Positions 23,144 to 63,002 of a stretch of 64,000 nt of DNA are shown one piece after another. This DNA is from Narcine bancroftii (taxonomy: Eukaryota), in assembly GCF_036971445.1 (NCBI RefSeq), contig NC_091470.1:196230001-196294000 (forward strand), written 5' to 3'. Below the pieces are notes generated by a model. That model saw only the letters and a program-made list of their open reading frames with translations. It searched no databases and had not been told where the DNA came from. The translations under genes were made by a program, and so were the position numbers. Numbering within the stretch: the stretch's first letter is position 1; every line of letters begins with the position of its first letter.

Positions 23144-23275
23144 CTAGTTGGTCCTGGAGTGGAATTTCACAGCTCCGTACAGAAGCTGCTGCTCTGAGCC
23201 CACGATGTTCCGGACGTCACCTGGCCTGTCCAACAGCTGTACCATGGAGTAGACGACCTCCTCCGAACCTTGCGC
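23144..23275 (-). CDS. PILR-like inhibitory Ig receptor, terminal exon with two ITIMs
   Basis: ctcctccAG acceptor, phase 0; AQGSEEVVYSMVQLLDRPGDVRNIVGSEQQLLYGAVKFHSRTN*; VVYSMV and LLYGAV fit (I/V/L/S)xYxx(L/V). Confidence 0.85.
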   Translation of the reverse strand, partial: AQGSEEVVYSMVQLLDRPGDVRNIVGSEQQLLYGAVKFHSRTN

Positions 23276-26414: not shown

Positions 26415-27660
26415 CAGCCCTGGATGTCCAGAGTGGCAGTGGGAGGGGGGCTGCTCTGCCTCACGGTGGTCGCTGTGGTCTGCAACTTCATGAGGACAGG
26501 TGAGTGGTTCACAAGGAGGTCCCTCGCTTGGGGGGAGCCCATGCTGGTAAATCCTTCACTGGGAGGCCCCTCCTCATTGGGAGATCCCTCGCTGGGAAAT
26601 CCCCTTCTGGGAGCTCCCTCAATGGGAGGTCCCTTACTTGGAAATCTTCACTGGGAGATCCCTCACTGTGAGATCCCTTGCTGGGAAGATTCATTGCTGG
26701 GAGATTCCACTAGCTAGCCGATTCCTCTCTCTGGAAGATCCCTCACTAGGAGATCCCTCACTGGAGAGATCCTTCACTGGGAGATCCCTCACTGGGAGAT
26801 CCTTCGCCTACCTACATTTTGACGGAGGCTTCAGGCCCGAGTCGTTTGTTACGGAGCCTTATCTTTGGTGCACAAGGAAGGCTGCGTGGCCTGCAGAGTT
26901 TCCCCAGCATTCTTGTGCAAACTATGACTACCGCGTCTTGTGAAACTCCACCTGAACTAAAAAAGCAAATTGAAATGTCTTACCTCAGGCGTGGACACAT
27001 CAGGAGAATAATCTGGAGACTGGCCAGCGGCAGCTGAAATAATAATGGTCAGCCTATTAGAAGGTCAGTCCCATCGTTCACCTCCTCATCACTGCACCAC
27101 AGCAGGTAGTGCCACTGCCTCAGGGGCCTGCAGTCCCAGGTCTGATCCTGTGACCTGGACATGACGACTCCACGCAGAGAGTGTCCGTGGCGGGGATCTC
27201 TAGAGAGGGATCTCCCAGGGAGAGGGATCTCCAAGGGAGAAGGATCTCCCAGTGAGGGATCTCTCCAGAGAGGGATCTCCTAGTGAGGGATCTTCCAGAG
27301 AGAGAGGAATCACCTAGCTAGTGGAATCTCTCAGCGAGGAATCTTCCCAGCAAGGGATCGCACAATGAGGAATCTCCCAGTGAAGATTTCCAAGTAACGG
27401 ATCTCCCAGGGAAGGAGCTCCCAGAAGGGGATTTCCCAGTGAGGGATCTCCCAGTGAGGAGGGCCTCCCCAGTGAGGGATCTCCCAGTGAGGAGGGGTCT
27501 CCCAGCGAAGGATTTCCCAGCGTGGGCTCCCCCCAGCGAGGGACCTCCTTGTGAACTACTCACTTGTCCGCAGTTTCCTCCTCATGAAGTTGCAGACCCC
27601 AGCGACCACCGCGAGGCAGAGCAGCCCCCCTCCCACTGCCACTCCGGACATCCAGGACTG
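26415..27660. repeat. Inverted duplication (arms about 26415-26805 and 27239-27660) containing most of the TM exon and a GGGATCTCCCAGTGA-type minisatellite
   Basis: The + strand copy encodes WMSRVAVGGGLLCLTVVAVVCNFMR followed by GTGAGT; it is the reverse-complement match of the minus-strand TM exon and its downstream intron. Confidence 0.9.
26984..27033 (-). CDS. PILR-like receptor, 50-nt cytoplasmic exon
   Basis: ttatttcAG acceptor, GTAAGA donor, phase 1 to 0; TAAGQSPDYSPDVSTPE links the TM exon in frame to the ITIM exon. Confidence 0.7.
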
Positions 27661-27701
27661 CCACGTTCTCCTCGGTGAGACTGGCGCCACTCTTCTCCTC
27701 T
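27564..27701 (-). CDS. PILR-like receptor, stalk/transmembrane exon
   Basis: ccccgttcAG acceptor, GTGAGT donor, phase 1 to 1; ERRRVAPVSPRRTWQSWMSGVAVGGGLLCLAVVAGVCNFMRRKLRT (uncharged TM plus basic stop-transfer). Confidence 0.85.
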
Positions 27702-38373: not shown

Positions 38374-38507
38374 CGGGTGACTGGTCAGTGGACGAAACGA
38401 GTGATATCCGAGAAGAGGCATTGAGAACAAATGACGGGAGAACCTTAAGGAAGCACACTAGGAATAGCTACTGGATCCCGGTAAGAGGAATTTATTTATC
38501 TGCTAGT

Positions 38508-41190: not shown

Positions 41191-42463
41191 TTTTTCTTTT
41201 TCTTTGGCCTGGCTTCGCGGACGAAGATTTATGGAGGGGGTAAATGTCCACGTCAGCTGCAGGCTCGTTGGTGGCTGACAAGTCCGATGCGGGACAGGCA
41301 GACACGGTTGCAGCGGTTGCAGGGGAAAATTTGTTGGGTGGGGTTGTGTGTTGGGTTTTTCCTCCTTTGTCTTTAGTCAGTGAGGTGGGCTCTGCGGTCT
41401 TCTTCAAAGGAGGTTGCTGCCTGCTGAACAGAGAGGCGCCAAGATGCACGGTTTGAGGCGATATCAGCCCACTGGCGGTGGTCAATGTGGCAGGCACCAA
41501 GAGATTTCTTTAGGTAGTCCTTGTACCTCTTCTTTGGTGCACCTCTGAAATGATGGCCAGTGGAGAGCTCACCATATAACACGATCTTGGGAAGGCGATG
41601 GACCTCCATTCTGGAGACGGGACCTACCCAGCGGAGTTGGATCTTTAACAGCGTGGATTCGATGCTGTCGGCCTCTGCCATCTCGAGTACTTCGATGTTA
41701 GGGATGAAGTCGCTCCAATGAATGTTGAGGATGGAGCGGACACAACGCTGGTGGAAGCGTTCTAGGAGCCGTGATGCCGGTAGAGGACCCATGATTCAGA
41801 TCCGAACAGGAGTGTGGGTATGACAACGGCTCTGTATACGCTTATCTTTGTGAGGTTTTTCAGTTTGTTGTTTTTCCAGACTCTTTTGTGTAGTCTTCCA
41901 AAGGCGCTATTTGCCTTGGCGAGTCTGTTGTCTATCTCGTTGTTGATCCTTGCATCTGATGAAATGGTGCAGCCGAGATAGGTAAACTGGTTGACCGTTT
42001 TGAGTTTTGTGTGCCCGATGGAAATGTGGGGGGGCTGGTAGTCATGGTGGGGAGCTGGCTGATGGAGGACCTCAGTTTTCTTCAGGCTGACTTCCAGGCC
42101 AAACATTTTGGCAGTTTCCGCAAAACAGGACGTCAAGCGCTGAAGAGCTGGCTCTGAATGGGCAACTAAAGTGGCATCGTCTGCAAAGAGTAGTTCACGG
42201 ACAAGTTTCTCTTGTGTCTTGGTGTGAGCTTGCAGGTGCCTCAGATTGAAGAGACTGCCATCCGTGCGGTACCAGATGTAAACAGCGTCTTCATTGTTGA
42301 GGTCTTTCAAGGCTTGGTTCAGCATCATGCTGAAGAAGATTGAAAAGAGGGTTGGTGCGAGAACGCAGCCTTGCTTCATGCCATTGTAAATGGAGAAGGG
42401 TTCAGAGAGCTCATTGCTGTATCTGACCCGACCTTGTTGGTTTTTGTGCAGTTGGATAACCAT

Positions 42464-42564
42464 TTTTTTTTTTTTTTTTTTTTTAATTTTTTTTTTTTTC
42501 ACACCATAAATCACAATAGCCATGATATACACTTTTTCTTTTCCACACATTTACAGTGACTTTT
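42464..42564 (-). mobile_element. Extremely 5'-truncated L1 (101-bp 3' tail) inside the RTE
   Basis: Perfect 15-bp TSD CAGTTGGATAACCAT (42449-42463, 42565-42579); long poly(A); similar to the L1 3' end at 28045-28140. Confidence 0.9.
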
Positions 42565-44799
42565 CAGTTGGATAACCATGTTGAGGAACTTTGGGGGGCA
42601 TCCGATGCGCTCTAGTATTTGCCAAAGCCCTTTCCTGTTCACGGTATCGAAGGCTTTGGTGAGGTCAACAAAGGTGATGTAGAGTCCTTTGTTTTGTTCT
42701 CTGCACTTTTCTTGGAGCTGTCTGAGGGCAAAGACCATGTCAGTAGTTCCTCTGTTTGCGTGAAAGCCGCACTGTGAATCTGGGAGAACATTCTCGGCGA
42801 CACTAGGTATTATTCTATTTAGGAGAATCCTAGCAAAGATTTTGCCTGCAATGGAGAGCAGCGTGATTCCCCTGTAGTTTGAGCAGTCTGATTTCTCGCC
42901 TTTGTTTTTGTACAGGGTGATGATAATGGCATCACGAAGGTCCTGAGGCAGGTTTCCTTGGTCCCAACAAAGCTTGAAAAACTCATGCAGTTTGGCATGC
43001 AGAGTTTTGCCGCCAGCCTTCCAGACCTCTGGGGGGATTCCATCCATACCTGCTGCTTTGCCACTTTTCAGTTGTTCAATTGCCTTATATGTCTCTTCCC
43101 GGGTGAGGACCTCATCCAGCTCTAGCCTTAGGGGCTGTTGAGGGAGCTGGAGCAGGGCAGAATCTTGGACTGAGCGGTTGGCACTGAAAAGAGATTGGAA
43201 GTGTTCTGACCATTGGTTGAGGATGGAGATCTTGTCGCTGAGGAGGACTTTGCCGTCTGAGCTGCGCAGCGGGCTTTGGACTTGGGGTGAGGGGCTGTAC
43301 ACAGCCTTCAGAGCCTCGTAAAAACCCCTGAAGTCGCCAATGTCTGCACTGAGCTGGTTTCGTTTGGCGAGGCTAGTCCACCACTCATTTTGGATCTCCC
43401 GGAGTTTGCGCTGAAGATGGCTGCATGCACGACGGAGGGCTTGTTTCTTCTCTGGCCAGGACGGCTTTGTAAGGTGAGCCTGGTGGGCAGCTCGCTTCTT
43501 TGCCAGCAGCTCCTGGATTTCCTGGCTGTTTTCATCGAACCAGTCCTTGTTTTTCCTGGAGGTGAAGCCCAGTACCTCTTCAGTGGATTGCAGTATGGTA
43601 GTCTTCAGCTGATCCCAGAGGGTTTCAGGGGACGAGTCCGTGAGGCGGATTGCATCCTCGAGCTTTGCTTTGAAGTTTGCCTGGAAGTTTCCTCTCACTT
43701 CGTCTGACTGCAGGTTTCCAACATTGAACCTCTTTCTGGGGGTTTTACTGTTGGCTTGAAGTGAAGGTTGAGCTTGCAGCGAACCAGCCGGTGGTCAGTG
43801 TGGCATTCCGCGCTGGGCATGACCTTGGTGTGGAGCACATCTCGTTTGTCTCTTTCTCGCACCAGGACGTAGTCCAGGACATGCCAGTGTTTGGATCGGG
43901 GATGCATCCAGGTAGTCTTCAGGCTGTCCCTCTGCTGAAAAAGGGTGTTTGTAATGACAAGCCGCTGTTCTGCGCAGAGCTCCAACAGGAGGCGCCCATT
44001 GTTGTTGCACTTGCCGACACCATGCTTGCCCAGGATTCCTGGCCAGGTTTCTGAGTCTTTGCCGATGCGAGCGTTGAAGTCGCCAAGGATGACAACCTTG
44101 TCGGCTGTAGGGGTGCATTGAATGAGGTTGCACAGGTCAGAACTTGTCCTTTTCTGCTGGTTCCGCCTGGAGGGTTGAAACATAGACACTGATGAGGGTG
44201 ATGCGACGCTTGTTTTGAAGGGGGAGTCGCATGGACATGATCCGGTCCGAGTGGCCTGTCGGGAGGTTTTCGAGTTTGGAAGCAATGGAGTTCTTGACCA
44301 TGAAGCCTACACCAGATAGGTGTCGTTCATCCATAGACTTGCCAGACCAGTAGAGTGTGTAGCCCGCGCTGCGTTCTTGGAGGCTGCCTACATCTGCAAG
44401 GCGGACTTCACTGAGAGCGGCTATGTCGATGTCAAGTCTGAGGAGTTCATGTGCAATGAGGGCAGACCGACGTTCAGGTCTGTCGGCCTTGTCTAGCATG
44501 GTTCTGATGTTCCAGCATGCTAGCTTGAGTTTGTGAGCATCTTTTGAGGGGGAGGATGTGGAGGGGGAGGACGTGGAGGGGGAGGACGTGGACCTGTCGT
44601 CGGGCCTGCGCAAAGGAGCTTTAAGGTGGAGTGCAGTGCGCGCAGTACTGGCTGCACCCTTTACACCCATGGTTCGTGGCCAAGCAAGCTGGGATGTGGC
44701 AGCGAGGTCCTTGGGTCGTAGGTTTTATATCGGAGTGGCCTTCTCCTATGCAGGTTTCTTACCCGGGCTGGAGGGGCCTGCCTCCCCTCCTAGGTCGGA

Positions 44800-46032
44800 C
44801 CATACTGCCCAGTCCGGGGCCGAGGCCGCCGCTGCTTTTCCTGTGCCCGGACTGGGGCCGCCGCCTCCTACTTTCTGCCCGGACCGGGGCCTCTGCCTGC
44901 CTCACTCGACCGAGGCTGGAGCTGCCGCCTCCCCTTTCACTCTTGCCCAGATCGGGGCCGCTGCCGCCTACCCTCTGCCCGGACCGGGTCGGGGCCGCCA
45001 CTGCTTTCCCTGTGCCCGGACTGGGGCCGCCGCCTCCTACTTTCTGCCCGGACCAGGGCCTCCGCCTGTCTCACTCGACCGAGGCCGGAGCTGCCGCCTC
45101 CCCTTTCGCTCTTGCCCGGATCGGGGCCGCCACTGCTTTTCCTGTGCCCGGACTGGGACCGCCGCCTCCTACTTTCTGCCCGGACCAGGGCCTCCGCCTG
45201 TCTCACTCGACTGAGGCCGGAGCTGCCGCCTCCCCTTTCGCTCTTGCCCGGATCGGGGCCGCCGCCGCCTACCCTCTGCCCGGACCGGGTCGGGGCCGCC
45301 ACTGCTTTCCCTGTACCCGGACCGGGGCCGCCGCCTCCTTCTTTCTACCCGGACCGGGGCCTCCGCCTGCCTCACTCAACCGAGGCCGGGGCCGCCGCTT
45401 CCCCTTCGCTCTTGCCTGGATTGGGGCCGCCGCCTCCCCTTTCACTCTTGCCCAGATCGGGGCCGCTGCCGCCTACCCTCTGCCCGGACCGGGTCGGGGC
45501 CGCCACTGCTTTCCCTGTGCCCGGACTGGGGCCGCCGCCTCCTACTTTCTGCCCGGACCAGGGCCTCCGCCTGTCTCACTCGACCGAGGCCGGAGCTGCC
45601 GCCTCCCCTTTCGCTCTTGCCCGGATCGGGGCCGCCACTGCTTTCCCTGTGCCCGGACTGGGACCGCCGCCTCCTACTTTCTGCCCGGACCAGGGCCTCC
45701 GCCTGTCTCACTCGACTGAGGCCGGAGCTGCCGCCTCCCCTTTCGCTCTTGCCCGGATCGGGGCCGCCGTCGCCTACCCTCTGCCCGGACCGGGTCGGGG
45801 CCGCCACTGCTTTCCCTGTACCCGGACCGGGGCCGCCGCCTCCTTCTTTCTACCCGGACCGGGGCCTCCGCCTGCCTCACTCAACCGAGGCCGGGGCCGC
45901 CGCTTCCCCTTCGCTCTTGCCTGGATTGGGGCCGCCGTCTGCCTCACTCGACCAAGGCCGGGGCCGCCGCCTCCCCTTCACTCTTGCCCTGATCGGGGCT
46001 GACACCGCCTACCCTCTGCCCGGACCGGGGCA
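44800..46032. repeat. GC-rich tandem array in the RTE 5' UTR with a 505-bp higher-order duplication
   Basis: About 30-40 bp units cored on GGGGCCGCC; near-identical translations at 44937-45302 and 45442-45807. Confidence 0.92.
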
Positions 46033-46035
46033 CTA

Positions 46036-46361
46036 TCCTTAAACAAATACTTATTATACACTACTATGATACACGATCCTTAAACAAATACTTATTATAC
46101 ACTACTATGATACACGATCCTTAAACAAATACTTATTATACACTACTAAAGCAAATAACTATAACACAATGTACCCTATTCTATTTGGCCAAGTGTCTAC
46201 ACTAGTATCTTGAGATCTCTACTAGGGGCCTCTAACCCCGTTTTCTACAGGGGACTCTAATCCCCGTTTCTACAGGGGACTCTAACCCCCGTTACCTACA
46301 GGGGACTCTAACCCCCGTTCCTTAAAGGGGACTCTAACCCCCGTTACCTACAGGGGACTCT
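46036..46361. repeat. 41-bp AT-rich tandem repeat (about 2.7 copies) plus about 26-27 bp ACAGGGGACTCTAACCCCCGTT repeat (about 6 copies)
   Basis: Direct inspection; both arrays lie inside the RTE TSD. Confidence 0.88.
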
Positions 46362-46470
46362 AACAAGCTAATCCACGGACTAAAGACGTTGACAATATAC
46401 CCTCCACCTGGCGTCCAGTCTCGCATCCTTCTGGTCTGAAAGTTACGCTACGCCGGGAAAACGTGCTGTA

Positions 46471-47495
46471 ATGTTATTTTTATTATTTGCTGTATTGTTT
46501 TTCTGCTGGTTCCCAATTTTTGTGAAACCACCCAATTGTACACAATGTATTAAGTCCTCCTGGAATAGGGACAGCAGAGGTGATAATTACTTTGAGGAAT
46601 GGACAAGTTTACCTTTAGAATGCAGACAGGCCACAGGTATAGAGTGTATTCATAGTGGGGTACCTTATTTAATATGGTTTAATTTAGGATCCCAACATGG
46701 ACCAGGGAAACAGAACTGCCCTAGGGGAGTGGATTGGGTTTGCGTCCCGGCCTCTACAGATATTAAAGAGATGAGTGCTAAAATTATTGTACAAAGAAGA
46801 TGGTGGGAAAATGATAGGTAGAACATTAGTCAGGGCTATACCTGGAGTAGGGATAAAGGGGGTATATATGCTAATGCTCACAGACAAGCTGCTACTCACA
46901 GGTTAGGTAACAATAAACGCTCCCCCCAACTTGGCATCTTGTAAATCATCCTTTGGGTCACGAATACATTCGGAAGGCTAAAGGCCATCACCATAAGGAG
47001 GATTCTAGTTGTAAACGGCTCAAGCTGCTCCAGAATACCACAGCTGTTTGGCATTTAAATCGTTTAATCAGACTCCAGGCAGTTTTAGAGATTATAACCA
47101 AACAGACAGCGACAGCCTTGGATTTATTGGCTGAAGAACAACGACAGATACAAGCTACTGCTTATCAAAACTGCCTGGCTCTCGATTACTTGTTGGCTCC
47201 TGAGGGTGGCGTTTGTGCAAGATCGATTGATGACAACGGTCACAATGGTCAGGCGTTTGAACTTTTTACTGGTGACTGGAGGTGGATACACACAGCCCTT
47301 ATAGCAGTTGGACTCGTTATTTTAGCCATCATGATACTTCCCTGCCTAATGACTTGTGTGCAGTGTTTAATTCAACGGACCCTTCATCAGATCACTACAA
47401 CCCAAAGGATGTCTGTTTCCCAAACTCCATCTGATGATGCTGAGATTGCAGTTCGTTTGCTGACTCGCTGGGAAAAAGACCAAGCTTCCAGTTGA
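46471..47495 (+). pseudogene. ERV-A env remnant (signal peptide/SU start and TM with immunosuppressive domain)
   Basis: Hydrophobic leader plus CTQC; [33 protein letters not shown] and membrane anchor; large internal deletions. Confidence 0.88.
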
Positions 47496-48836
47496 GAATT
47501 TACTAAGTGTAGCTAAAGAAAAAGTGTGGATTGTGAGAGATAATAGAATATAGGAAGTAAAGCTAGTATGAATGAAATAACGAATACTAGACTAGTTAAA
47601 TAAGTGCTGAGTCGGGATGAATTCCGATAAGAGTGTGAGGAAGGGTTACGCAAGTATAATAGAATAAGGGTCATATAGTGATAGAAAAAATTAGCAAGTT
47701 CTGATATAGAATTAGTAAGTCCTGGGGGTTGAGATGTGTGAATAAGGACAAAGGCAGATTCATGAATAAGGACAATGACATGATGGGACAGGATACCCCA
47801 TGGTCTTTCAAGTTTAGAAACTGCATGTAGGCAGACAAAAATTACCAAATACCAAACCAATCCAGAAAGCAGAAGAATGTTAGGGGGGAAAGGGTACCTC
47901 TACACTGAAATGAACTGTATAAAAGTTGGGTGAGCCCCAGTATGTGTGTGCATTCCCATGGTAAGGGGAAGCACCCAACTTTGCACTGTTGTACAATAAA
48001 TGTTCTTTGTTCTCAATTTTTGTCTCGAGCGAAATCTGTGAAGGTACTTCTGTTTCTCACATAGCTTTGCTTTTTCTTTACTTTTTAAAAACTTTTCTGG
48101 AGTATGTTTTTACCGGTCACTACTCCATCATGTGACTGACCTCGATGGAAGCTCTTTTCAAGAGTTTTGCCAGAGAGCACAGAAAGGTCACTCCTGGATT
48201 GTTTACCTCCAATAACAACAGATGGGAGAAGAAGAAAGAACTCTGCCGTTTGTTGGAGAAGGTGGGGGTTTTGCAAGACATGGGTCATATGCTCTCTTTG
48301 GAGTTTCAGTTGGAAGAGAGAGAGAGTGTTGAGTTAACAGCTCAGTTAGTCAGTCAGTGTATGGGACACTGACAAGTAACTGAAAAGTGCAATCCAGGGA
48401 AAACTGTTTGAAACTGATAAAAGCAAGTTTCAGAGCAGTAGATGGCTGGAAGGGCTATCTGTCTGATGTTTCTCTTGAAATAGAGGAAGGAATGGAACTC
48501 TGTGGTAGCTTGAAGAAAGAGGTTACCATCTAGAAAACCCTGATGGGGCAAGTTTTATCAACGAGACCCTGAGGTGACTAGTGGGTTAAATTAATTTAAC
48601 CCTGTTAGAGCACCAGCCCGCTGGGTTCGAATCCGGCCCTGTCTGTACATTCTCCCCCGTGCCTGCATGAATTCCCCCGCCCCCCCAGGACAGGGGCTCC
48701 AGTTTCCTCCCACCTTTCAAAATCGTTCAGGGGTTGTAGGCCAATTGGGTGCAATTGAGCGGCAAGGGCTCGCGGGCCGGAAGGTGCTGTCACCACGCTG
48801 TACATCTTTGGACAGAAGTGGGGATACAGGGCTCAC

Positions 48837-48848
48837 CTCTCACTGTCA
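48837..48848 (-). CDS. Displaced 3' end of the PILR-like V exon (..L-T-V-R, phase 1)
   Basis: Removing ERV-B and one TSD copy restores ACC CAT CTG ACA GTG AGA G/GTGAGC, i.e. GTHLTVR plus a donor site. Confidence 0.88.
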
Positions 48849-49917
48849 GATGTGTTAGAAATTAAAGTACCTTTAAAGAAATTGCTCGAGACAAAAATTG
48901 AGAACAAAGAACATTTATTACTACAACAATGCAAAGTTGGGTGCTTCCCCTTACCCTGGGAATACACACACATACTGGGGCTCACCCAACTTTTATACAG
49001 TCAATTTCAGTATCAGAATGCCCTCCCCCTTACATTCTTCTGCCCCCCTGGATGGGTTTGGCATAGGTAATCCTTCCTGCCTACGTGCAGTTTCAGTACA
49101 CTTGGAGGACCAGGGGGTATCCTGTGGGTGCCCCATCATGTCATTGTCCTTATTCACACCTTCCTGATTCTCTGGGCTACAGTCTCTTAATATGCAGAGT
49201 TGACTCATTCTATCTAGGGTTGGCTAATTTCATATGTATAAATCTGTGTATGGTTAGCTAATTAGAAATGTATGACTTGGTACTTCTGTCCAGGGCTAGG
49301 AGACCCTTATCTGATCCAGACTACCTCAACTTCCTACATTCTATTGTACCTTACCATTCCTTATCTTAGTGCTATGGTCTTGTCACAAAGACTAGAAGAT
49401 TCTTATGTTAATCGTGCTGACTCTGCTTTCCTGCATCCTAAGCCCCAAGCTTATCCTGTTTGAACTGGTTACAGCCATTTTACTGATGAACTTTAGTTTC
49501 TTCCATGTTCATAATTTTAGATCAATTTTCCCATCTCTCACAATCCTCACTTTTCTTTTAGATCAGTAATATTGATCTTTCACCATGATCAGTGTTACTG
49601 ATCTTTGGTTACTAGTGTCAGTGTGACTGATCCCCCCCCCCCTTTCCTCACTTTTCTTTTAGATCAGTAACACTGATCTTTCAAGTGTAAGGTGTAGTTT
49701 TACCCAGCTGGTCAATAACCGAATTGTAATGTCTGTGTAAAGTCTTTAGGTAGGGGAGCACCATGAAGGTCAGGGGAGTGAGTCCAGCTGCTTATTAGGG
49801 TTTGGAGTATCAGGCTCCAGTTCTCAGTAAAGAGTCTAGTCCATCCCATACGTTGAAATATTGAAGCAGTGTCTTTGAAGCACACGACCTTTGTAAGTGT
49901 TGTCCCGACGAAGTCTG

Positions 49918-50034
49918 TGAGAAGCGCTGCCTTCAGCAGCGAACGAGTAGCAGTCTATGAGAAGCGCTGCCTTCAGCAGCGAACGAGTAGCAGTCTATGA
50001 GAAGCGCTGCCTTCAGCAGCGAACGAGTAGCAGT
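49918..50034. repeat. 40-bp tandem repeat (about 3 copies) in the ERV-B env region
   Basis: GAAGCGCTGCCTTCAGCAGCGAACGAGTAGCAGTCTATGA repeated. Confidence 0.9.
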
Positions 50035-50624
50035 AGTCAGGCGATTCCGTTTGATTGTGGCTCGTATCTGATGTCCTCTTCAGCCCCGAACCCTAGGGCC
50101 ACCGATCTCCGAAGGCTGTTTGGAGCCTGATATTAAAGTGTCAAGCAGCTCACGTTGTTGGAAACTGGTGCTCCCTTTCATGGGGTGATGAAAAGTGACC
50201 AAGCAGGGGGGGATTGTTTCTTGTGATTTAACTGTGTGTTGCAGCTTGTCTGCTAACATTAGCATATATATCATTGAACTTGTGAGTTGCAGCCTGTCTG
50301 TGTACATTAGCATATGTATTAACTCTCTCTCTCTCTGTTACATGTACAATCCTGACTACCATTCTGTCTGTCTTTGTCCCACCATGTCCTTTGTGCTATC
50401 GCTTCAAAACTCCTGTCTTTAATACCTGTGTAGGCTATGATACAAATTAGATGTACTCCACTAAAGCTGTTTAATTCCCCTGGTCCGTATTGGGATCCCT
50501 TATATCCCATTATGACTATACATTAAATCTATGCCCTGTCTACATTCTAAAGGAGCTGAATTGTAACCTCTGCTGCCCCTATTCCAGGGGGTCTTAAAAC
50601 ATTAACGAACAATATTCCAAAGAA

Positions 50625-50870
50625 ATTAGTAAACAACAATGAACAATACATGTAAAGCTCATTAAAAACTGCAATAAAATACAATAAGAACTGAATAAAA
50701 CACAATAAATGTAAAGCTCATTGAAAACTGCAATAAAATACAATAAGAACTGAATAAAACCACAATAAATGTCAAGCTCATTGAAAACTGCAATAAAATA
50801 CAACAATAACTGAATAATCAAAAGACAAGTAAAATACAACAATAACTGAATAATCATAAAAAAAAACAAG
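50625..50870. repeat. About 60-bp AT-rich tandem repeat at the ERV-B env leader
   Basis: AAAGCTCATT.AAAACTGCAATAAAATACAA.AA.AACTGAATAA repeated about 3-4 times. Confidence 0.8.
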
Positions 50871-50875
50871 TAACA

Positions 50876-51135
50876 CTACGGCACTTTGTCACGGCGCAGT
50901 GTAAGTTTCAGGTCTGATGGATGAGGAACTGCACGCCAGGTTGGGGTTTGAATCTGTGTGTCGTGGTGTTGTGGTTCAGAAGCTGGTTTAACCCTTTGAA
51001 TGTGGGTCCAGCCTTTCTCTCTTGTTCTTACTGCGGTGTCTGTAATTAAAAGTACACAGAAGGGACCATCCCAGGCAGGTTTTAGTTGATCCTCTTGCCA
51101 TGCTTTTACATAAACCCAATCGCCAGGTTTTAATA
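50876..51135 (-). pseudogene. ERV-B integrase C-terminal remnant
   Basis: KPGDWVYVKAW..LKPAWDGPFCVLLITDTAV..GWTHIQRVK. Confidence 0.85.
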
Positions 51136-52499
51136 AAATGAATAACAATCTGACTTTCCTTTGTGTTAGTGTAAAAATTGTAAAATGAAACACAAACCAT
51201 ATTTGCATGGGTTTTGAATATGTTAGACCTTATTAAAATGCAGTTGGAGCTGCTTGTCTGTATGGGGCACAACCCTCCAATTTGTTAGAGTGAGTACATA
51301 ACAGACATTGCAGCAACAAGAGCCCCTGCAAGAGAACTTGAAACATATTCAACCTTTAGTTCTGCCTTAAGTAAAATGCCTTGTGCCACAGCTCACAGGA
51401 GCTGGCCTTATTTAAAACAGTCTGTAAAACAGGCACCAAAAAAAGTTAAAAGATGTTCTTATGAAGATTGCACACACAATAATTTAAGTACAGGCTAGTT
51501 TCTATTATATTCCACTTAAAAGTTCTGCTGCATGAATCCTGGAGCTTGTGGAGTCATTATTGAATCAAGAAATATTGGTGCCATGCCAATCTCATTCTAA
51601 CATGCCAATTTCTCCAGTCCTTAAGTCAAGATGTACTGAATAGCATCTGGTACAAGATCTGTGAGTTCTTAATGATATTATTCTTATGCACCCAATTGTT
51701 CTGAACTATGCCACCAATTTAAATCATATTCCACCTATTGTAGTACTCACACAGCACCATAGACCAGTTCGCAGGTTTATTTCTCCATTAAGCTGAATCC
51801 AGTTGCGCAGGGTTTACCTCCGTGATTATTTACAATGTAACTTCCGCACTACTGGATTTAAATATAAACCTGATGAATGGGGGAAAGTTATCATGAATTA
51901 AATAACAGCGGCAATACAGAGAAATTGTGCTGAGGCATTAATTTCACTCCAGAGGAAAATGCACCAGAGAAATGAATGATTAAACTTATAGGAATCCCCA
52001 GAGGTATCTTTATTCTCCAGAGGTGGGTGATCTTTAAACTCACGGACCTTGACTGCTGAATGTGTAGAAGAAATGTATTTGATAGGGCTCCATACCTCTA
52101 ACTGCAAGACAAGAGCCTGAAGCCTCAATTTCAAGTGCCACAGTGCACTTAAAGGGACATGCACACTCCCCCTTCAACTGGCTGATCCAGCCACTTTACA
52201 CATCAGATCCTTTCTTTATCTCACATACACTTAAAGTTAAGATGTATAGAACTCACCCTATTTGCGCAAACATTTCTCCCTGCAAATGTTATAACATCAC
52301 TCAACTCTCAGGTACTCCCTGTGCAAAATCACTTTTAAATACAATTTATTTCATAAATTGGAATTAACTGGTAGTTAAATTCGCTAATTCTACAGTATTG
52401 AAAAACGATCATTTATGACATTTAATTTTTAGCATGAATTTTAATCAATATTGGTCAGTGACTGAAGTGGGAAGTCATGATTTATGAAATTATCTCTGG

Positions 52500-53678
52500 T
52501 CTCTACTCTCCCACTCCCTGCACTTCTCCCAACATTCAGGAGCTGGCACACAGTCCCTGCCTTTTTTTCCATGTTACTCATCTACTATTCCTTTAACTGC
52601 TTGCATCAAAATGTTAGCCTTTGCTTTCTGCTTATCCTCAGATGTCTGGACAAATGCTTTTTGTGTGATCTGTAGAAGCTGGGTTATTCCCTGCTCATGC
52701 CAATTTTCTGTCTTTTGTAATTTTCTCTTAATGTCTGGGGCTGAGTTGGTAACAAAACCTGTTAGTACCAATTGTTCCCCTGCTGGGGATTCTATGTCGA
52801 GACCCCCATATTGTATATATATATGGTCCCAAAAATTGGTCTAACTGTTCAGCACATCCCTGGGGATCTTCTATCAGGGAGGTCAGTTCTTTCTTAAAGT
52901 TACACACTTCAGTACTGGTCAGGGGCACATTTACGAACCCAAGACCTTCTCCTACGGGAACCTCCCGTAGGGGTCGCATCCAGCTAATTTCTGGTTTCTT
53001 TGATTTGTTTTCCTGTTCCCTGAGGAATACATCTCAAGGTTCTGCCACTTCTTCCTGAGGGATCTCACGCTGTTCGGAGTAACAATGCTCTACCTCTACT
53101 GTTAACGGGGGTGGTAATCGAGCGCTTTGTGAGCGAGTCACCATACCACTCCGGTTCTCCTCTCTCTTCTCTAGTGGTATGGGAGGAGGAGGGGGAGGTG
53201 CAGAAGGGTAGGCAATAGGAGGGGAAGGAAAGATAGGAGCCGGCATAGGAGGAACATAAGGTGGAGGGAGGGAATGTAACACATCCCAACCCTGTGGTTC
53301 AGGGACAAGAGGTTCCTCCTCTCTCTTATTCCTGAATTCTTTCTCATTCAAAACCAGCTGTTCAATGGATCCCTTGAGCCAGCAGGCTGCATATTCCCTG
53401 CTCTCAACATTGTCTGGCTGGTTTTGATAGAGCCATAAGTTCAAAGCTTCACACATCCATTCATCCTCGGATCCGAATTTTGGCCAGTACACGGAGCTCC
53501 CTTTAACCGGGCATCTCACCCATTCATTACAACAATACCTGACCATCGTCAGTTTGTCTTTACCGCGGGTCTTTCCTGTGCCCCACTCAGATAACATCAT
53601 CCCAAGCGGGCTGTACGTAGCTATCTGGTGGTCACGTCCTGTGTCAGGACTCTCATCTCTACTGCCCGCTATTCCCAT
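52500..53678 (-). pseudogene. ERV-B gag (open 214-aa MA/PPPY ORF at 53034-53678, then deleted and frameshifted CA)
   Basis: MGIAGS..WPKFGS..PPPY; MRPLREVP..VPLTSTEV; GFVTNSAPDIKRKLQK; homologous to ERV-A gag. Confidence 0.9.
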
Positions 53679-53882
53679 ACTTAGGAACAAGTAAAATACT
53701 CTTACCGAGTTCTGGCAGTACTGCTCTAGCGCGCGTCCTTCCGCCGTTTGTTCTCAATGCCTCTTCTCGGATATCACTCGCTTCTTCCACTGACCAGCCA
53801 CCCGTCGCCCGTGAGTCCAGCTGAATCAGCCGGGGTGCACCTACTCTCGTCGTCGGGGTACTCTGTCAGTGGAGGGAGTGTG

Positions 53883-53900
53883 ATCCCGGACGAGTCCCCA
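53883..53900 (-). promoter_or_regulatory. Primer-binding site, tRNA-Pro
   Basis: TGGGGACTCGTCCGGGAT, 17/18 match to the MLV-type Pro PBS TGGGGGCTCGTCCGGGAT, 2 nt from the LTR end. Confidence 0.92.
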
Positions 53901-54587
53901 TTTGTTAGAAATTAAAGTACCTTTAAAGAAATTGCTCGAGACAAAAATTGAGAACAAAGAACATTTATTACTACAACAATGCAAAGTTGGGTGCTTCCCC
54001 TTACCCTGGGAATACACACACATACTGGGGCTCACCCAACTTTTATACAGTCAATTTCAGTATCAGAATGCCCTCCCCCTTACATTCTTCTGCCCCCCTG
54101 GATGGGTTTGGCATAGGTAATCCTTCCTGCCTACGTGCAGTTTCAGTACACTTGGAGGACCAGGGGGTATCCTGTGGGTGCCCCATCATGTCATTGTCCT
54201 TATTCACACCTTCCTGATTCTCTGGGCTACAGTCTCTTAATATGCAGAGTTGACTCATTCTATCTAGGGTTGGCTAATTTCATATGTATAAATCTGTGTA
54301 TGGTTAGCTAATTAGAAATGTATGACTTGGTACTTCTGTCCAGGGCTAGGAGACCCTTATCTGATCCAGACTACCTCAACTTCCTACATTCTATTGTACC
54401 TTACCATTCCTTATCTTAGTGCTATGGTCTTGTCACAAAGACTAGAAGATTCTTATGTTAATCGTGCTGACTCTGCTTTCCTGCATCCTAAGCCCCAAGC
54501 TTATCCTGTTTGAACTGGTTACAGCCATTTTACTGATGAACTTTAGTTTCTTCCATGTTCATAATTTTAGATCAATTTTCCCATCTC

Positions 54588-54952
54588 TCACAGATGGGTT
54601 CCGGGGATGTTCTGCCAAGCCTTTATCCTCCGTCCATTGATTATTATCACCCTGCAGAAGTATTTGCTGGAATCTCTCTTCAGGAGCCTGTTTAGCTGGA
54701 TGGTGCCTGTCTTTTCTTGGAGCGGGGATCCCAAGAACTTGATCCGACCTTGGTAGTCACGGTGTGTGAGGTTATTTGAAGAATCGAATATAAATTCCCC
54801 ATGAAAATTATGAACTCTCCAAATGATGGTGATTGTCTGAGGTCTGTAGGTGTTTGGGAAGGTGAAGGAGCAGGGTATGGTGACCAACCCACCCACCTCG
54901 CCCTCCAGGGTTGCAGTCTGCTCCACCAGAAACCGGCCGTCCTTGGCGCCTG
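54588..54952 (-). CDS. PILR-like Ig V-set domain exon, now ending at an LTR-derived TGA
   Basis: NAGNAG acceptor (ccctcAG cAG); VTIPC, W, FHG, H.DY..R, D..KYFCRV, WQNIPGTHL motifs resemble PILR/Siglec-type V domains. Confidence 0.92.
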
Positions 54953-55402
54953 CTGAGGGAAGAGTAAAGGTGAAAATCAGCAGATCTCAACGCGTGTCTG
55001 TCATATAATAACTCCCGACCCCTCCCTGTGGGTGAGGGGCTAATAGCCATCATCTCCCTCTCTCCCTCCGCTCCACTCACAGTCCCACACCCCACCCATC
55101 AGCTCCTCAACGATTCCCAGCATTGAAGGGGGGCATGCGGGGATTTGCCATTCCAAATATAAACCCCCTGAATGCCCCGGGATTAGACCCCCGGCCTCTA
55201 ACTCTGTTGTTTTATCTATAAAATCCTTGAATCCTGGGATTAGGTCTGAGTCTGTAACCCGCTCCCAGGGATCAGTTACTCCATCTATACACCCCCTTGG
55301 ATTAGATCCCAGGAGGATTCCCACTCCCTGAGATCAGCTCAGGCCGTTCCCCACTTCCCGGATGCCTGTTTGAGGTGCCCATTTGAAGAAGTGTTCACTC
55401 AC

Positions 55403-55505
55403 TGGTGGTGAGCGGCAGCAGAACGAGGAGCAGGGCGAGGTGCAGCGGCAGGGTCCATGGCAGGTCGTAGACAGACGCCAGGATGGATCCCATCCCTGCT
55501 GACAT
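55403..55505 (-). CDS. PILR-like receptor, leader (signal peptide) exon
   Basis: MSAGMGSILASVYDLPWTLPLHLALLLVLLPLTT with GTGAGT donor, phase 1, in frame with the V exon. The true start may be the second Met (55493). Confidence 0.85.
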
Positions 55506-55507
55506 GC

Positions 55508-55596
55508 TGAGTCACCGCTTCTGATTTCTTCCTTCGCCTGTGATCATTTCCTTCCTCTTGACCCTGATTGCAGACTTGGGATTGCGTATTATGTAA
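55508..55596 (-). promoter_or_regulatory. Candidate TATA-less proximal promoter of the PILR-like gene
   Basis: AP-1 TGAGTCA (55508-55514), ETS/PU.1-like GAGGAA (55557-55552), C/EBP-like ATTGCGTA (55581-55588). Short motifs only. Confidence 0.3.
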
Positions 55597-56706
55597 ACCA
55601 CTGTAATGTTGGTCGAGCGTGCCTATTGGCCAGCTGTTCCCGTGGCCCAATCCCACAGGCTCATGTATAAAGGTGACTGTTCCACACCCCCCTGCAACTC
55701 AGTGCAGGATAGCCGAGCAGTGGGGGGGGGGGGGGGGATGTGCTATGTTCTCAAGTGAATTAAAACCTATTGGTTTCTCCACAATAGTCTCCTGCATCAG
55801 TTTAATTCACGACGTTTTCGACAGCCTCACCTGAGGCATCTACCAGCTTCGAACTCTGGCCGCGCTGTTTTGAGGCAGACCTCCTCGACTGTTGTGCGAT
55901 CCTAGACCCTGACAAACTGCAAGTGCTGCCCTCCCGGGTCCACATCTGACAAACTCATGATCAGGGGCACCACAACGTGCCAGGAGGCCATGGACATCCC
56001 TGTAAAAATCAACGTTGTCTCTGCCCAGCACCTCCTTGTGACTTGAAAATGGCGACCTGGTGAACCTGACATCTCGGCAGGGCCCGTGAAGGCAAAGCTG
56101 CATCCATCGCGGAGGACCTGATCCAGGGGTTGCGGGGCATCAAGTTGAATTACATCCAACAGAAGCTTTTGGTGTAGGGGGAGCTCAGGCTGCAGAGAGC
56201 AGTTGAGCTGGTAGGTACGCTGAAGGTGGGTTTCCAGAATGTGGAGGCCTATCCAACTGACAATGCGGTTACCCCAGTCACAGGATGCGCCACCATCCAC
56301 CCCCTCTCACTCCGCTCCACCAATGACTGGACTACAACAGCAGGGCTCGGCAAAAGCCTCCTGACCCTCTCGGCCAGCCGCAGTGATGACCCGGCCGCAG
56401 CATTCCGGGAACCCCCAAAGTGTGACCCGGATGAGCATCCAAGGAAAGGCGCCCACCCCCACCTGTCAAAGGATTCGGCCTGCTCCAGCTGCAGGAAGAA
56501 GGGACACTGCCACCAAAGTGTATTTAAAGTTCAAACCCCTTCCCAGCAGCGCCGCATGCGGACCATGGGGGGGGGCCATCTTCCGCAACACTGCCATCAG
56601 CTGGGGGCTGGCAGTGCCACGTGCGATCCAGGAAGGGGGCAGCCATCTTGGATGCCACATTCAGGACCCAGCTGCGGCACGTGCGTGCCATGGAGACCGC
56701 CATCTT
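55592..56706 (+). mobile_element. Second Gypsy element, part 1: LTR (about 55592-55799) and degenerate gag
   Basis: TATAAA 55666-55671, ATTAAA 55759-55764, CA end at 55799; gag-like FELW..CFE, ELRLQRAVEL and knuckle CSSCRKKGH. LTR start uncertain. Confidence 0.65.
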
Positions 56707-58844: not shown

Positions 58845-59555
58845 TGTTAGAATGGCACAAGTTGCCCCTGCTTGTAACAGTCCTCTATGTACTCATCCAC
58901 CCAGAGGACCGCCAGCACATGGCGTTCAAGGCGGATAGCCACCTCTTCTACTTCCTGTGGGTCCCTTTTGGTATCACGCACAGCGTCCCGGTCTTCCAGT
59001 GGGAGAAGGCCGGTATGGTGCATCAGTATGAGTTGCGGGCCACGTTCCCGTATCTCGGCAATGTCACCATCTGCGGCCACGACCTGCAGGACCATGATCC
59101 CAATCTCCAGAGATTTGTCGAGGCAGCCAAGATCCTGAAGCTGACTTACAACAAGGCCAAGTCCGGGTTCTGCCTGGTTGTGACGTGGAGAATGGCATAA
59201 TTGGCCAGGACCCAGACCACATGGGATCTGGAACTTCTCCTCCCACACAGCCTCAAGGCCCTGAAGAGGTGCCTTGGGATTTTCTCCTATTATGCTCAGT
59301 GGGACCCTGACTATGCAGACAAAGCCCAGCCCCCTTATCAAAGCTACATCCTTCCCCAGGTGGAGGAGGCTTGCGCAGCCCCTGACCGCAGAGTCCGAAA
59401 TTGCCAAGGCCACGATGCACGCGGTGGACGTATCCACCCCTTTTCAGGTGGAAAGCGAAGCGTCAGACTTTGCCCTGGCAGCCACCGTCAACCAGGCCAG
59501 CCAGTTGCATTCTTTACACGTACTCCTCAGGGCCCCGAGATTCGACACTCCTTTA
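58845..59555 (+). mobile_element. Second Gypsy element, part 2: degenerate RT/RNase H
   Basis: VPFGITHSVPVFQ, FPYLGNVTICG (decayed YLDN), LKRCLGIFSYYAQW, PFQVESEASDFALAAT, PVAFFTRT. Confidence 0.85.
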
Positions 59556-62500
59556 CACCTCACGGGTCCCCAACTATCTTTAACATTCCTGGGACCCCAT
59601 ATCCCTTTACACCTCCCAGAACCCCTTCTCCCTTTACACGCCCGGGACCCCATTTCCTTTTTCACTCCAGGGACCCCATCTCCTTTTACACCTACCCTAC
59701 CCCCAGGACCCTGTATCCCTTTACACCTCCTGGGATACCGTCTCCCTTTACACCTCCCGCGATCCCATCTTCCTTAACAGTTCCCAGGACCCCATATCCC
59801 ATTACAATCCCTGGGACTCCGTCTCCCATTACACCCCGGGAACCACCATCTTCCTTTATAACCCCCAGGATCCCATCTCCCTTTACACCTACCTTACCCC
59901 CAGGACCCTGTATCCCTTTACACCTCCTGGGATACCGTCTCCCTTTACACCTCCTGTGATCCCATCTCCCTTAACAGTTCCCAGGACCCCATATCCCGTT
60001 ACAACCCCTGGGACTCCGTCTCCCATTACACCCCGGGAACCCCCATCTTCCTTTATAACCCCCAGGATCCTATATCCCTTTACACCCCCTGGGATCCTGT
60101 CTCCCTTTACACCCCCGAGACCCGTCTCACTTTACACACACTGGGGCATCATCTCCCTTTGCACTCCCCAGGAAACCGTCTCCCTTTACACCACCTGAGA
60201 CACCATCTCCCCTTACACTCCCGGGACCCCGTCTCCCTTTACACCGCCCAGGACCCCGTCTCGCCTTATACTCCCGGGACCCCATCTCCATTTACAATCC
60301 TGCAACCCCGTCTCACTGTACAATCTACAGGACCCCGTCTCCACTTGCACTCCCGGGACTCAATCTCCATTTACACCCCGAGACCCCATCACCGTTTACA
60401 TTCCCAAGACCCTTTACACTCCCGAGACCCCATCTCCCTTTAGACTCTCGAGACCTTGTCTCCCTTTACACTCCTGGTGTCCCATCTCCTTTTACAACCC
60501 CCCCCCCCCCCGAAACCTCGTCTCCCTTTATAACACCTGGGATCCCGTCTCCTTTTACACACCTGGGACCCCATCTCCCTTTACACTACTGGAACCCCTC
60601 TCACTTTACACTCCCGGGACCCCGTCTCGCTTTTCATCCACCTGGACACCATCTACATTTATGCTCCCCAACATCCAGTCTCCCTTTATACTCCCCAGGA
60701 CCCCATCTCCCTTTTAAAAAAACCCAGGACCCTGTGTCTTTTTACACTCCCAGAATCCCATCTCCCTTTACACTGCCTGCCAGGACCCCATCTCCCTTTA
60801 CACTCCCAGGACCCCATCTCCCTTTATCCTCCTCAGGACCTGGTCACCCTTTACACACCCGGGATCCTATCACCTTTTACACTCCTGGAACCCCGACTCT
60901 CTTTACACTTCCCGGACCCCATCTCCCTTTACACCACCCGGGATACTATCTCTCTTTACACCCACCCCGAGACCTCGTCTCCCTTCACACCACCCGGGAC
61001 CCCGTCTCCTTTTACACACCCGGAGTCCATCTCCCTTTACACTGCCGGAACCCCATCTCCCTTTACACTCCTGGGAGCCCGTCACCCTTTACACCACCCG
61101 GAACCCGTCTCCCTTTACACTCCTGGCACCCCATCTCCATTTACACTCCCCGGGACCCCATCTAAATTTAAACTCCCGGGACGCCATTTCCCTTTACACT
61201 ACGGGAATCCCGTCTCCCTTTACACCACCCGGGACACCGTTTTCCTTCACACTCCTGGCACCCCGTGTCCATTTACACTCCCGGACCCCGTTTCCCTATA
61301 CACCACCTGGGACTCCATCTCTCTTTTCAGTACCTTGACCCTGTCTCTCTTCACATTCCCGAGACCCCGTCTCCCTTTATACTCCCCAGGAGCCCGTCTT
61401 TCTTTCAAAAAACCCAGGACCCTGTCTTCCTTTACACTATCGGGATCCCTTTACACCACTCAGGACTCCATCTCCCTTAACACCACCCAGGTTCGTCTAC
61501 CTTTACACTCCCAGGATCCTGTCTCCCTTTACCCCCCCCCTCCCCCCCCCCCGAGACTTTACACTATGGGAACCCTTCTCCCTTTACATTCCCGGGACCC
61601 CGACTGCATTAACAGCACCCGGGACCCCGTTTCCCTTTACACTCCTGGCACACTTTACACTCCCGGGATCCCATCTCCATGTACGCTTCCCAGCATCCCG
61701 TCTCCCTTTACACTCCCGAGACCCCGTCTTCCTTTACACCCCGTGGGACCCCATCTCCCTTTATGCCACCCGGGACCCCATCTGTTTTTACACTCCTGGG
61801 ACCCCTTCTCCCTTTATACTCCCTAGGACCCCATCTCCCTTTCAAAAAACCCAGGACCCCGTGTCCTTTTTTCACTCCTGGGACCCCATCTCCCTTTTCA
61901 CTCTCGGGACTCCGTCTCCCTTTACACTCCCAGGACCCCCATCTCCCTTTACAATCCCGCGACCCCATCTCCCTTTATCCTCCCCAGGACCTGGTCTCCC
62001 TTTACACGCCCAAGACCCCATCACCTTTTACATTCCCGGGACTCTATCTCTCTTTACACTCACTCCCCGGACCCCATCTCCCTTTACACTCCCGGGATCC
62101 TGTCTCTCGTTACACACCCCCCGAGAACTCGTCTCCCTTTACACCACCCGGAGCCCGTTTCCCTTTACACTGCCGGAACCCCATCTCCCTTTACAATCCC
62201 GCGACCCCATCTCCCTTTATCCTCCCCAGGACCTGGTCTCCCTTTACACGCCCAAGACCCCATCACCTTTTACATTCCCGGGACTCTATCTCTCTTTACA
62301 CTCACTCCCCGGACCCCATCTCCCTTTACACTCCCGGGATCCTGTCTCTCGTTACACTCCCCCCGAGAACTCGTCTCCCTTTACACCACCCGGAGCCCGT
62401 TTCCCTTTACACTGCCGGAACCCCATCTCCCTTTACACTCCTGGGAGCCCGATACACTTTACTTTACGGAACCCGTCTCCCTTTACACTCCCCGGGACCC

Positions 62501-63002
62501 CATCTAACTTTACACTCCCGGAACGCCATCTGCCTTTTCACCGCCTGGGACCCCCGCCTCACCTTACACTCCCACGTTCCCCTCTCCCTTTACTCTCCAA
62601 TGGACCCCGTCTCCCTTTAGACTCCCGATACTCTGTCACCTTTTACAATCCCGGGACCCCACCTCCCTTTACATCCCTGAGACCCCATCTCCCTTTACAC
62701 ACCTCAGGACCCTGTCTCCCTTTACACTCCCGGGACCCCATCTCCCTTTGTACTCCCCAGGATCTTGTCTCCCTTTACACTCCCGAGACTCCGTCACCCT
62801 GTACACTCCTGGGTCCCCATCTCCTTTTACACTCCCAAGACTACTCTCCCTTTTCAACACCCTGGACATCGTTTCCCTTTACACTCCCGGGACCCCGTCT
62901 TCCTTGACACTCCCAGGACCCCGTCTCCCTTTACAATCGCGGGACCCCGTCTCCCTTTAACACTCCCCGGGATCCCTTCTCCCTTTACACTCCCCAGGAC
63001 TT
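59555..63002 (+). repeat. Degenerate about 27-28 bp C-rich minisatellite (CCCCATCTCCCTTTACACTCCCGGGA) with internal block duplications
   Basis: Well over 100 diverged units; a 242-bp block is duplicated at 61951/62193. Confidence 0.95.

Follow-up and report, generated by a model that had tools for sequence, protein, structure and literature searches.

The V exon of a PILR-like inhibitory receptor gene in the electric ray Narcine bancroftii is interrupted by a retroviral insertion, and the predicted product of this allele is a 155-residue protein that lacks the transmembrane segment (TM) and the ITIMs. We consider it probable (roughly 0.6) that the insertion allele is a loss of function of the kind known from the bovine APOB-ERV allele, through the likely destabilisation of its product. 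That the V domain is stable and secreted is possible but is not what we expect. The case belongs to a known class and is unusual for a cartilaginous fish. Coordinates are positions in the window, the whole 64,000-nucleotide stretch of the genome that we analysed (Table 1).

The host gene is identified by the resemblance of its predicted V domain to PILR. PILRA or PILRB were the top five of 18 PDB sequence matches (best E 8e-15), and PILR took the top six Foldseek places for the V-domain model (8e-11). When compared with human PILRA structures (PDB 3wuz, 3wv0, 9pd2, and 4nfb), R80, F84, G86, R135, and Q148 of the ray domain align with PILRA R72, F76, G78, R126, and Q140. (Roles with sialic acid are reported for R126, the F-strand Arg, and Q140, the G-strand Gln; PMC6235402.) Without the insert, six exon pieces with canonical splice sites translate as a single open frame of 264 amino acids: leader, V domain, TM, and two ITIM-type motifs. 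Human PILRA and the chondrichthyan PILR-like proteins share this plan of one V domain, a TM, two ITIM-type motifs, and the sialic-acid Arg. The ray differs from human PILR in having a B-strand Cys where the human proteins have Phe, in its truncated allele, and in that two hallmarks of inhibitory PILR, the binding of sialylated O-glycans and the recruitment of SHP-1/2, are predictions in its case. Also, no second or paired activating PILR gene was found with two protein queries against the one assembly, which may be incomplete; this is why we say PILR-like. As the same two queries gave one strong PILR match, the gene is apparently single-copy. Our literature search returned nothing pairing PILR with cartilaginous fish. 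The 5' UTR reaches at least 55604, and the leader is encoded from 55505 to 55403, with in-frame ATGs at 55505 and 55493. Intron 2 contains several elements and, in inverted orientation, a copy of part of the TM exon.

Table 1. Features of the receptor gene and the inserted element, in the direction of transcription.
Feature	Position	Strand	Basis or remark
Exon 1 (5' UTR and leader)	55403..55604	-	RNA-type contigs X5 (55604-55403) and X6 (55510-55403); translation
Upstream ORF, 11 codons, within the transcribed 5' UTR	55512..55547	-	
Intron 1, 450 nt, GT-AG	54953..55402	-	Splice joint 54952/55403 seen in X5 and X6 but not in DNA run X4
V exon as far as the insertion, PILR-like V-set	54593..54952	-	Sequence and structure matches
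Target site duplication CATC, first copy	54593..54596	-	
5' LTR, 690 nt	53903..54592	-	First bases finish Leu155, then stop
LTR-derived TGA stop	54588..54590	-	
TATA-like box, 5' LTR	54042..54047	-	
AATAAA	53964..53969	-	Predicted cleavage past the CA ending at 53949, then a T/GT-rich tract; use of the site inferred
Primer-binding-site-like sequence	53883..53902	-	
Internal region, defective	49543..53902	-	gag fragments, integrase C-terminal piece
3' LTR, same sequence as 5' LTR	48853..49542	-	
Target site duplication CATC, second copy	48849..48852	-	
Stranded last 12 nt of V exon (Thr-Val-Arg and one base), then native GT donor	48837..48848	-	
Stalk and TM exon, cut off from V exon	27564..27701	-	Predicted; hydropathy peak 2.1; outside the read coverage examined
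First cytoplasmic exon	26984..27033	-	Predicted
Last coding exon, VVYSMV and LLYGAV ITIM-type motifs	23144..23275	-	Like the tails of homologues P0007, P0015, and P0016

The insertion is real and not a chance match. It is a provirus-like element of 5,740 nt (54592-48853, minus strand) with CATC on both sides, LTRs with TG...CA ends, a primer-binding-site-like sequence downstream of the 5' LTR, and a polypurine tract upstream of the 3' LTR. The placement of these two sites puts the element in the sense of the gene, as the initial annotation had it, and 12 nt before the splice donor. A 4-bp target duplication was present in six of six paired copies. A domain scan of four ORF pieces of the element matched two of them, to Gag_p30 (52577-52840, E 1.7e-6) and MLVIN_C (50879-51229, E 3e-11). 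In the internal region, the longest of 25 ORFs listed has 239 amino acids, and none is the size of a reverse transcriptase or env. The element is gammaretrovirus-like and defective, without an open gag/pol/env set. Its primer-binding-site-like sequence is presumably of the tRNA-Pro type; a pattern search near the site identified no primer tRNA and an Rfam scan gave no matches. A literature search found nothing joining Narcine and endogenous retroviruses.

The two LTRs are identical over 690 of 690 nt. The initial annotation took this identity as a sign that the allele may still be polymorphic, and we give that argument little weight: at the shark rate of 7e-10 per site per generation, identical LTRs permit an age of up to about 3.1 million generations. 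An intact allele may coexist with the insertion allele. By sequence, the LTRs belong to a large, young family (1,812 candidates; all 40 that were scored were near full length at 99-100%), and in such a family an occasional exonic insertion would require no selection.

At the junction, the LTR begins with T behind the host C, so C plus TG forms a Leu codon, and the next codon is TGA. The leader (55505-55403), the V exon (54952-54593), and this TG together encode exactly 155 amino acids ending in GTHL. The open leader and V domain, the ending, and the stop had all been read correctly from the DNA, and the public protein XP_069771468.1, which is the sole RefSeq form (a cluster of 1), is the same product. 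Searches for a longer Narcine protein found none with the V domain among 121 candidates and none with the ITIM exon among three, both weak negatives. The exons for the TM and the cytoplasmic ITIMs are intact, lie downstream of the stop, and are missing from the product. Splicing from a cryptic donor ahead of the stop would not rescue the receptor. Of the 12 GT or GC sites listed from the V acceptor to the stop, three (54892, 54760, and 54748) keep the phase of the TM exon, and use of any of these would remove at least 60 V residues; so none restores a membrane form with the whole V domain. At the junction itself, splicing from a donor-like site (54591, 5 of 9 matches) would be out of phase and lead to a 211-residue product without a TM, and the RNA contigs read through this site.

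The allele is transcribed. We examined four of nine sequencing runs, and we take X5 and X6 to be RNA because both skip the intron that the DNA run X4 covers; their type comes from this skipping and not from an RNA record. Contigs in both RNA-type runs join the leader to V and continue into the LTR with no other letters, for 30 nt in X5 (record 15, 592 nt, depth 5.11) and for 28 nt in X6 (record 22, 497 nt, depth 7.55), lengths that fall below our 31-letter bridging rule. Thus, spliced leader-V RNA that enters the LTR, one part of what the initial annotation had proposed, does exist, and the gene is still transcribed and spliced. Among the contigs listed, which are of low depth, neither run forks at the LTR junction. 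In X4, an unforked contig reaches 26 nt into the LTR at a depth of 2.9, which is too low for zygosity. Pieces from organism B (X9) match the V exon and the UTR with no differences, in coverage that excludes the junction. The contigs carry no information on the 3' ends of the transcripts. We tried the ratio of RNA to DNA depth over the LTR as a marker of polyadenylation and rejected it, as the drop begins at about 54075, upstream of the AATAAA, and the depth pools all copies of the LTR. Several donor-like sites lie in U3 between the stop and the AATAAA (54404, 54209, 54083, and 54004, each with 7 of 9 matches), and U1 binding is reported to be able to repress polyadenylation at the 5' LTR of HIV-1 and foamy viruses but not of MoMLV (PMC3694450).

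Would the 155-residue product fold? The description of it as lacking only Thr-Val-Arg is right in that three residues are absent, but it understates the loss. The ligand-binding domain is incomplete, as the last three residues of the G strand are gone. The residue two past the GTxL motif, which is the lost Val, is V, I, F, or M in 91 of 93 homologue matches. Of the five PILR chains in the PDB, four stop three residues beyond the equivalent Leu. In AlphaFold models, the A' strand has five residues and the final strand six in the intact homologue P0016; in the truncated product these shrink to one and two, and the A'-G pairing disappears, leaving the A' strand without a partner. In the filamin domain FLN5, the last six residues reportedly carry nearly all of the stability, and yet truncations of two or four residues remained folded (PMC6166796); the ray product lacks about three. 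On balance, the models and the comparison suggest that the product is likely destabilised.

A different reading of the same protein is that it folds, is secreted, and binds sialylated ligands, so that a receptor has been converted to a soluble lectin as an unselected by-product. The leader is open with a hydrophobic core, spliced RNA runs into the LTR, the equivalents of R72, F76, G78, R126, and Q140 are kept and are distant from the lost end, and cysteines C62 and C134 on the B and F strands may hold the domain together. The short FLN5 truncations and the confident model of the truncated V domain (block means 95-98) favor this reading as well, but we dropped AlphaFold confidence as evidence on stability because AlphaFold does not measure it. 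Given the lost hydrophobic residue and the lost A'-G pairing, and given that the upstream ORF and an out-of-frame ATG in strong context may reduce output, we regard this conversion as doubtful. A stronger version, in which the allele is common or fixed and the ray's only PILR-like receptor has become a secreted domain that folds and binds sialic acid, seems unlikely.

The initial annotation had offered a choice between a decoy and a null allele, and null is the likelier of the two. In the selected form of the decoy idea, the soluble protein would antagonize intact PILR alleles or mask ligands or pathogen glycans. Antagonists made by retroelements are known, for example soluble PD-L1 (PMC6877088; PMC13709765); the domain is cut almost exactly at its end; and the contigs listed from the two RNA-type samples show no fork toward an empty allele. 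However, with a single PILR match in the assembly for the two queries, a homozygote would have no membrane receptor to antagonize, whereas known decoys coexist with a full-length form. Also, the neat stop is less special than it appears, because the LTR stops after 0, 6, or 10 residues in its three sense phases. We think that a selected decoy is highly improbable.

In soluble PD-L1 (CD274-L2A), as in the ray, a retroelement strips the TM and tail from an immune regulator of the Ig family, and in that case a soluble ectodomain remains (PMC6877088). But that element is an old intronic LINE; the isoform is an alternative one beside the membrane form, is conserved in hominids, keeps whole Ig domains, and has a tested function, while in the ray a young insertion within an exon does away with the membrane form of its allele and clips the domain. 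In IL18R1-Short, IFNAR2-S, and IL13RA1-LOR1a, termination derived from an element also shortens an immune receptor (PMC13709765). As that review presents them, these are alternative isoforms without cytoplasmic signaling domains, their decoy activity was tested, and all are mammalian.

Another possibility is that the gene was already decaying, and that the element is only the latest damage to it and truncates it without a phenotype. An ATG in strong context at 55458 does not share the reading frame: it precedes the LHL codons by 13 nt, and in 14 of 14 pattern-matched homologues a Met precedes them by 12 nt; but the MGSIL at 55493 also resembles the starts of homologues. Of 42 columns without variation among seven homologues from sharks and chimaeras, six differ in the ray (leave-one-out controls gave 0-4), although the ray is the one batoid in this comparison, and some of the six columns vary in batoid homologues as well. 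The state of intron 2 would fit decay, too. Nevertheless, the six exon pieces still form one open frame with canonical splice sites, and transcription and splicing persist, so we judge prior decay to be highly improbable.

To explain a loss of function, we propose the following. The element lies in the V exon's last codons, and its stop precedes the exons for the TM and the ITIMs. The spliced leader-V RNA enters the LTR, and its likely end is at the poly(A) signal there, the AATAAA that the initial annotation had pointed out. Cleavage near 53949 would produce an mRNA of two exons and about 1.2 kb whose stop lies in the last exon, so that junction-dependent decay would not act on it. In any transcripts that splice from LTR donors, this stop would stand a long way upstream of a junction, which would make them substrates for decay. 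The leader would route the chain into the ER. Without the end of the G strand, the A' strand would be unpaired and the core exposed, and we would therefore expect much of the product to be degraded or to fold only marginally. A secreted fraction, if there is one, would consist of monomeric lectin domains that have little to oppose.

In favor of loss of function we count the anatomy, the leader-V-LTR RNA, the 155-residue protein as the only RefSeq entry, the lost conserved residue and A'-G pairing, the PDB chain ends, the result for the last six residues of FLN5, and the large young LTR family. Against it are the kept binding residues, the B-F cysteines, the confident model, the folded short truncations of FLN5, contigs that extend only 28-30 nt into the LTR, the donor-like sites in U3, and a possible intact allele. 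The closest parallel is bovine APOB, where an ERV-K insertion in exon 5 causes cholesterol deficiency (PMC9355974). In both cases a young ERV in a coding exon brings a premature stop while upstream exons are still transcribed, and a poly(A) signal is reported in the bovine 5' LTR (PMC9355974) as there is an AATAAA in the ray's. The bovine allele loses 97% of the protein and has a known phenotype (PMC9355974), while the ray allele keeps nearly the whole ligand-binding domain. Also, the ray element is gammaretrovirus-like and defective, and its transcript's 3' end at the LTR is a prediction.

Soluble or decoy immune receptors made by elements have been tested nearly only in mammals and mostly for old insertions, and the review describes such decoys in other vertebrates as untested (PMC13709765). 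The ray case is young, exonic, and transcribed, and it comes from a cartilaginous fish. Should its product prove to fold and to be secreted, it would show the first step of such an innovation being made by one mutation. If the stronger soluble-lectin reading, with a common or fixed allele, is true, the conversion of a receptor would have been caught at its birth, with both alleles perhaps available for comparison. If the allele is null, then an ancient inhibitory receptor of the sialic-acid type can be lost, and coding exons of the ray genome are among the targets of an ERV family that has spread recently.

The retroviral insertion (ERV-B) in the V exon of the PILR-like receptor gene is real and is transcribed. 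The element lies on the minus strand (54592-48853; 5,740 nt), sense to its host gene, and its two LTRs of 690 nt each differ at 0 of 690 sites. It is flanked by a 4-bp target duplication, CATC, and 12 nt separate the second copy from a GT donor at 48836. The upstream LTR is followed by primer-site-like sequence, and a purine tract precedes the downstream LTR. (In a comparison with 11 other 5' LTR copies, the primer-site-like sequence showed a single-base difference at 53900-53895, minus strand.) The host/LTR junction reads C+TG and then TGA (54590-54588), and leader, V, and TG make 155 codons. AATAAA lies at 53969-53964, 618 nt 3' of the stop; beyond it come a CA whose last base is 53949 and a T-rich tract. 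When we rechecked the junction, the stop, AATAAA, the distance to the donor, and the 155-codon frame, all of the coordinates in the initial annotation held. The tidy stop is not rare, because in every sense phase this LTR soon reaches a stop (after 0, 6, or 10 residues).

Nine sequencing runs, none of them on record as RNA, contain the stretch, and four of these were examined. In each of X5 and X6, one contig skips intron 1 (joint 54952/55403), spans V with 0 other letters, and reaches into the LTR (30 and 28 nt). These contigs behave as RNA, because in the DNA run X4 intron 1 is covered and the joint is absent. Also, they derive from the filled allele, because the empty allele would have only two bases in common with the LTR. 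Their reach of 28-30 nt falls slightly short of the 31-letter bridging rule, and they probably end where a 31-letter word graph would meet a high-copy repeat. Neither contig forks at the junction (at a depth of 5-8, and contigs lose rare forms), which fits homozygosity or dominance of filled-allele RNA. Such dominance is possible in the ray, because bovine APOB carriers are reported to express exons upstream of the insertion over tenfold more (PMC9355974). The predicted leader-V-LTR transcript is thus seen as spliced RNA 28-30 nt into the LTR in X5 and X6, and we infer the remaining part, cleavage near 53949. Run X9, whose label gives a different organism, has 0 differences at 54745-54948 and 55527-55677 and contains the same LTR family; its coverage does not include the junction.

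The stop, the loss of TM and ITIMs, and the entry of spliced RNA into the LTR are demonstrated. Cleavage near 53949 would yield an mRNA of two exons that carries its stop in the last one and would be spared junction-dependent decay. Four donor-like sites between the stop and AATAAA (7/9 matches) count against such cleavage, as does the repression of 5' LTR polyadenylation by U1 that is reported for HIV-1 and for foamy viruses, but not for MoMLV (PMC3694450). Splicing from these sites would give the identical protein but a decay-prone RNA. Among V exon and LTR donor sites, we found none that restores the membrane form with the whole V domain.

Against the PDB, the V domain matches PILRA and PILRB best (the first 5 of 18 matches, lowest E 8e-15; Siglec-15, E 5e-7), and the top six fold matches of its model are PILR. 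It retains the residues aligned to PILRA R72, F76, G78, R126, and Q140, whose roles we take from PMC6235402. It has the sialic-acid Arg, which is absent from a number of homologous domains, most of them from named batoids (proteins P0006, P0007, P0009, P0033, and P0050, some with two V domains). Two protein queries against the Narcine assembly gave one strong match (48/48 and 31/31 candidates scored; other matches 29-33% identical), so the gene looks single-copy. Without the insert, leader, V, and the three exons tabulated form a single open 264-aa frame, and the tail matches sawfish and shark homologues.

Receptor exons and surrounding features
Feature	Position	Strand	Basis
Short stalk + TM exon	27701-27564	minus	translation
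Cytoplasmic exon	27033-26984	minus	translation
Last exon with VVYSMV and LLYGAV	23275-23144	minus	translation
Inverted partial copy of TM exon and following intron repeats	~26415-26808	plus	
Broken LINE, presumably L1-like	~28300-33900	minus	
Older related ERV	~33972-48061	plus	
Exons of cysteine-rich gene, presumably PLAC8/cornifelin-like	11341-9724	minus	
Assembly gap, 200 N	13336-13535		
Long G/C-skewed tandem arrays, units 22 nt and ~26 nt	4616-9565 and 59550-62995		

The V-TM intron holds the broken LINE (sense to the receptor gene) and, antisense, the older ERV, whose LTR pieces are 88% alike and 84% to the young LTR; LINE-like pieces, two of them a long inverted pair, break it up. With the first cytoplasmic exon between the two, the inverted TM-exon copy faces the original and could pair in pre-mRNA and alter splicing. 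The cysteine-rich gene is downstream of the receptor, with the gap between them.

The gene could have been decaying before the insertion. An out-of-frame ATG at 55458 (minus strand, strong context), 13 nt 5' of the LHL codons, may be the trace of an earlier 1-nt indel that upstream ATGs bypass; Met lies 12 nt before these codons in 14/14 pattern-matched homologues. Alternatively, the true start may be MGSIL at 55493, with a 12-residue insertion. We consider earlier decay very unlikely. An upstream ORF of 11 codons begins at 55547 (minus strand).

This is a defective element, in which the longest ORF of 25 reaches 239 aa, gag is fragmented, and pol is reduced to an integrase C-terminal piece. 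Matches to Gag_p30 and MLVIN_C suggest a gamma-like affiliation. Its LTR family is large and young (40 near-full-length matches at 99-100% plus 2 partial; 40 of 1,812 candidates scored). Among 30 fetched loci, which are the best-scoring copies and hence biased toward young ones, the 28 outside the element carry 1-3 differences from its LTR, 30/30 keep AATAAA, and the paired copies have 4-bp duplications (6/6) and often identical LTRs (4/6). At the rate reported for the epaulette shark (7e-10 per site per generation; PMC10587355), one LTR-LTR difference corresponds to ~1.0 million generations and zero differences are compatible with ≤3.1 million. Thus LTR identity, which had been read as suggesting a polymorphic allele, is no proof of polymorphism.

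When 1.84 billion representatives were searched without a profile, 363 matched at E ≤ 0.001, and the 150 listed include an identical 155-aa protein, XP_069771468.1 from Narcine bancroftii, the sole member of its cluster. The truncated product is already in RefSeq; this entry comes from the same genome and therefore is not independent support.

Would the product fold? The lost Val position is V, I, F, or M in 91/93 homologue matches. In the model of the intact homologue, residues 29-33 form the A' strand and residues 132-137 the final strand; in the truncated-product model, these strands comprise one and two residues, respectively. In FLN5, removal of 2 or 4 C-terminal residues is reported to leave the protein folded, and removal of 6 to take away nearly all of its stability (PMC6166796), so a three-residue loss would be borderline; two core cysteines may help hold the domain. 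Overall, a folded, secreted product is doubtful, and its release as a by-product is an unlikely account of the allele. Even if folded and secreted, a decoy would need a receptor to oppose, and the two queries found none in the assembly beside a possible intact allele; a selected decoy is the least likely reading.

Our literature search, with most subscription journals outside its coverage, returned no paper pairing PILR with cartilaginous fish or Narcine with endogenous retrovirus. The ray product resembles sPD-L1 (PMC6877088) and other element-made decoys (PMC13709765) in kind. Unlike these, it is not a complete domain and its truncation is not an alternative isoform. In its action the ray allele instead matches the exonic ERV allele of bovine APOB (PMC9355974), and it is likely (probability roughly 0.6) a young loss-of-function allele.
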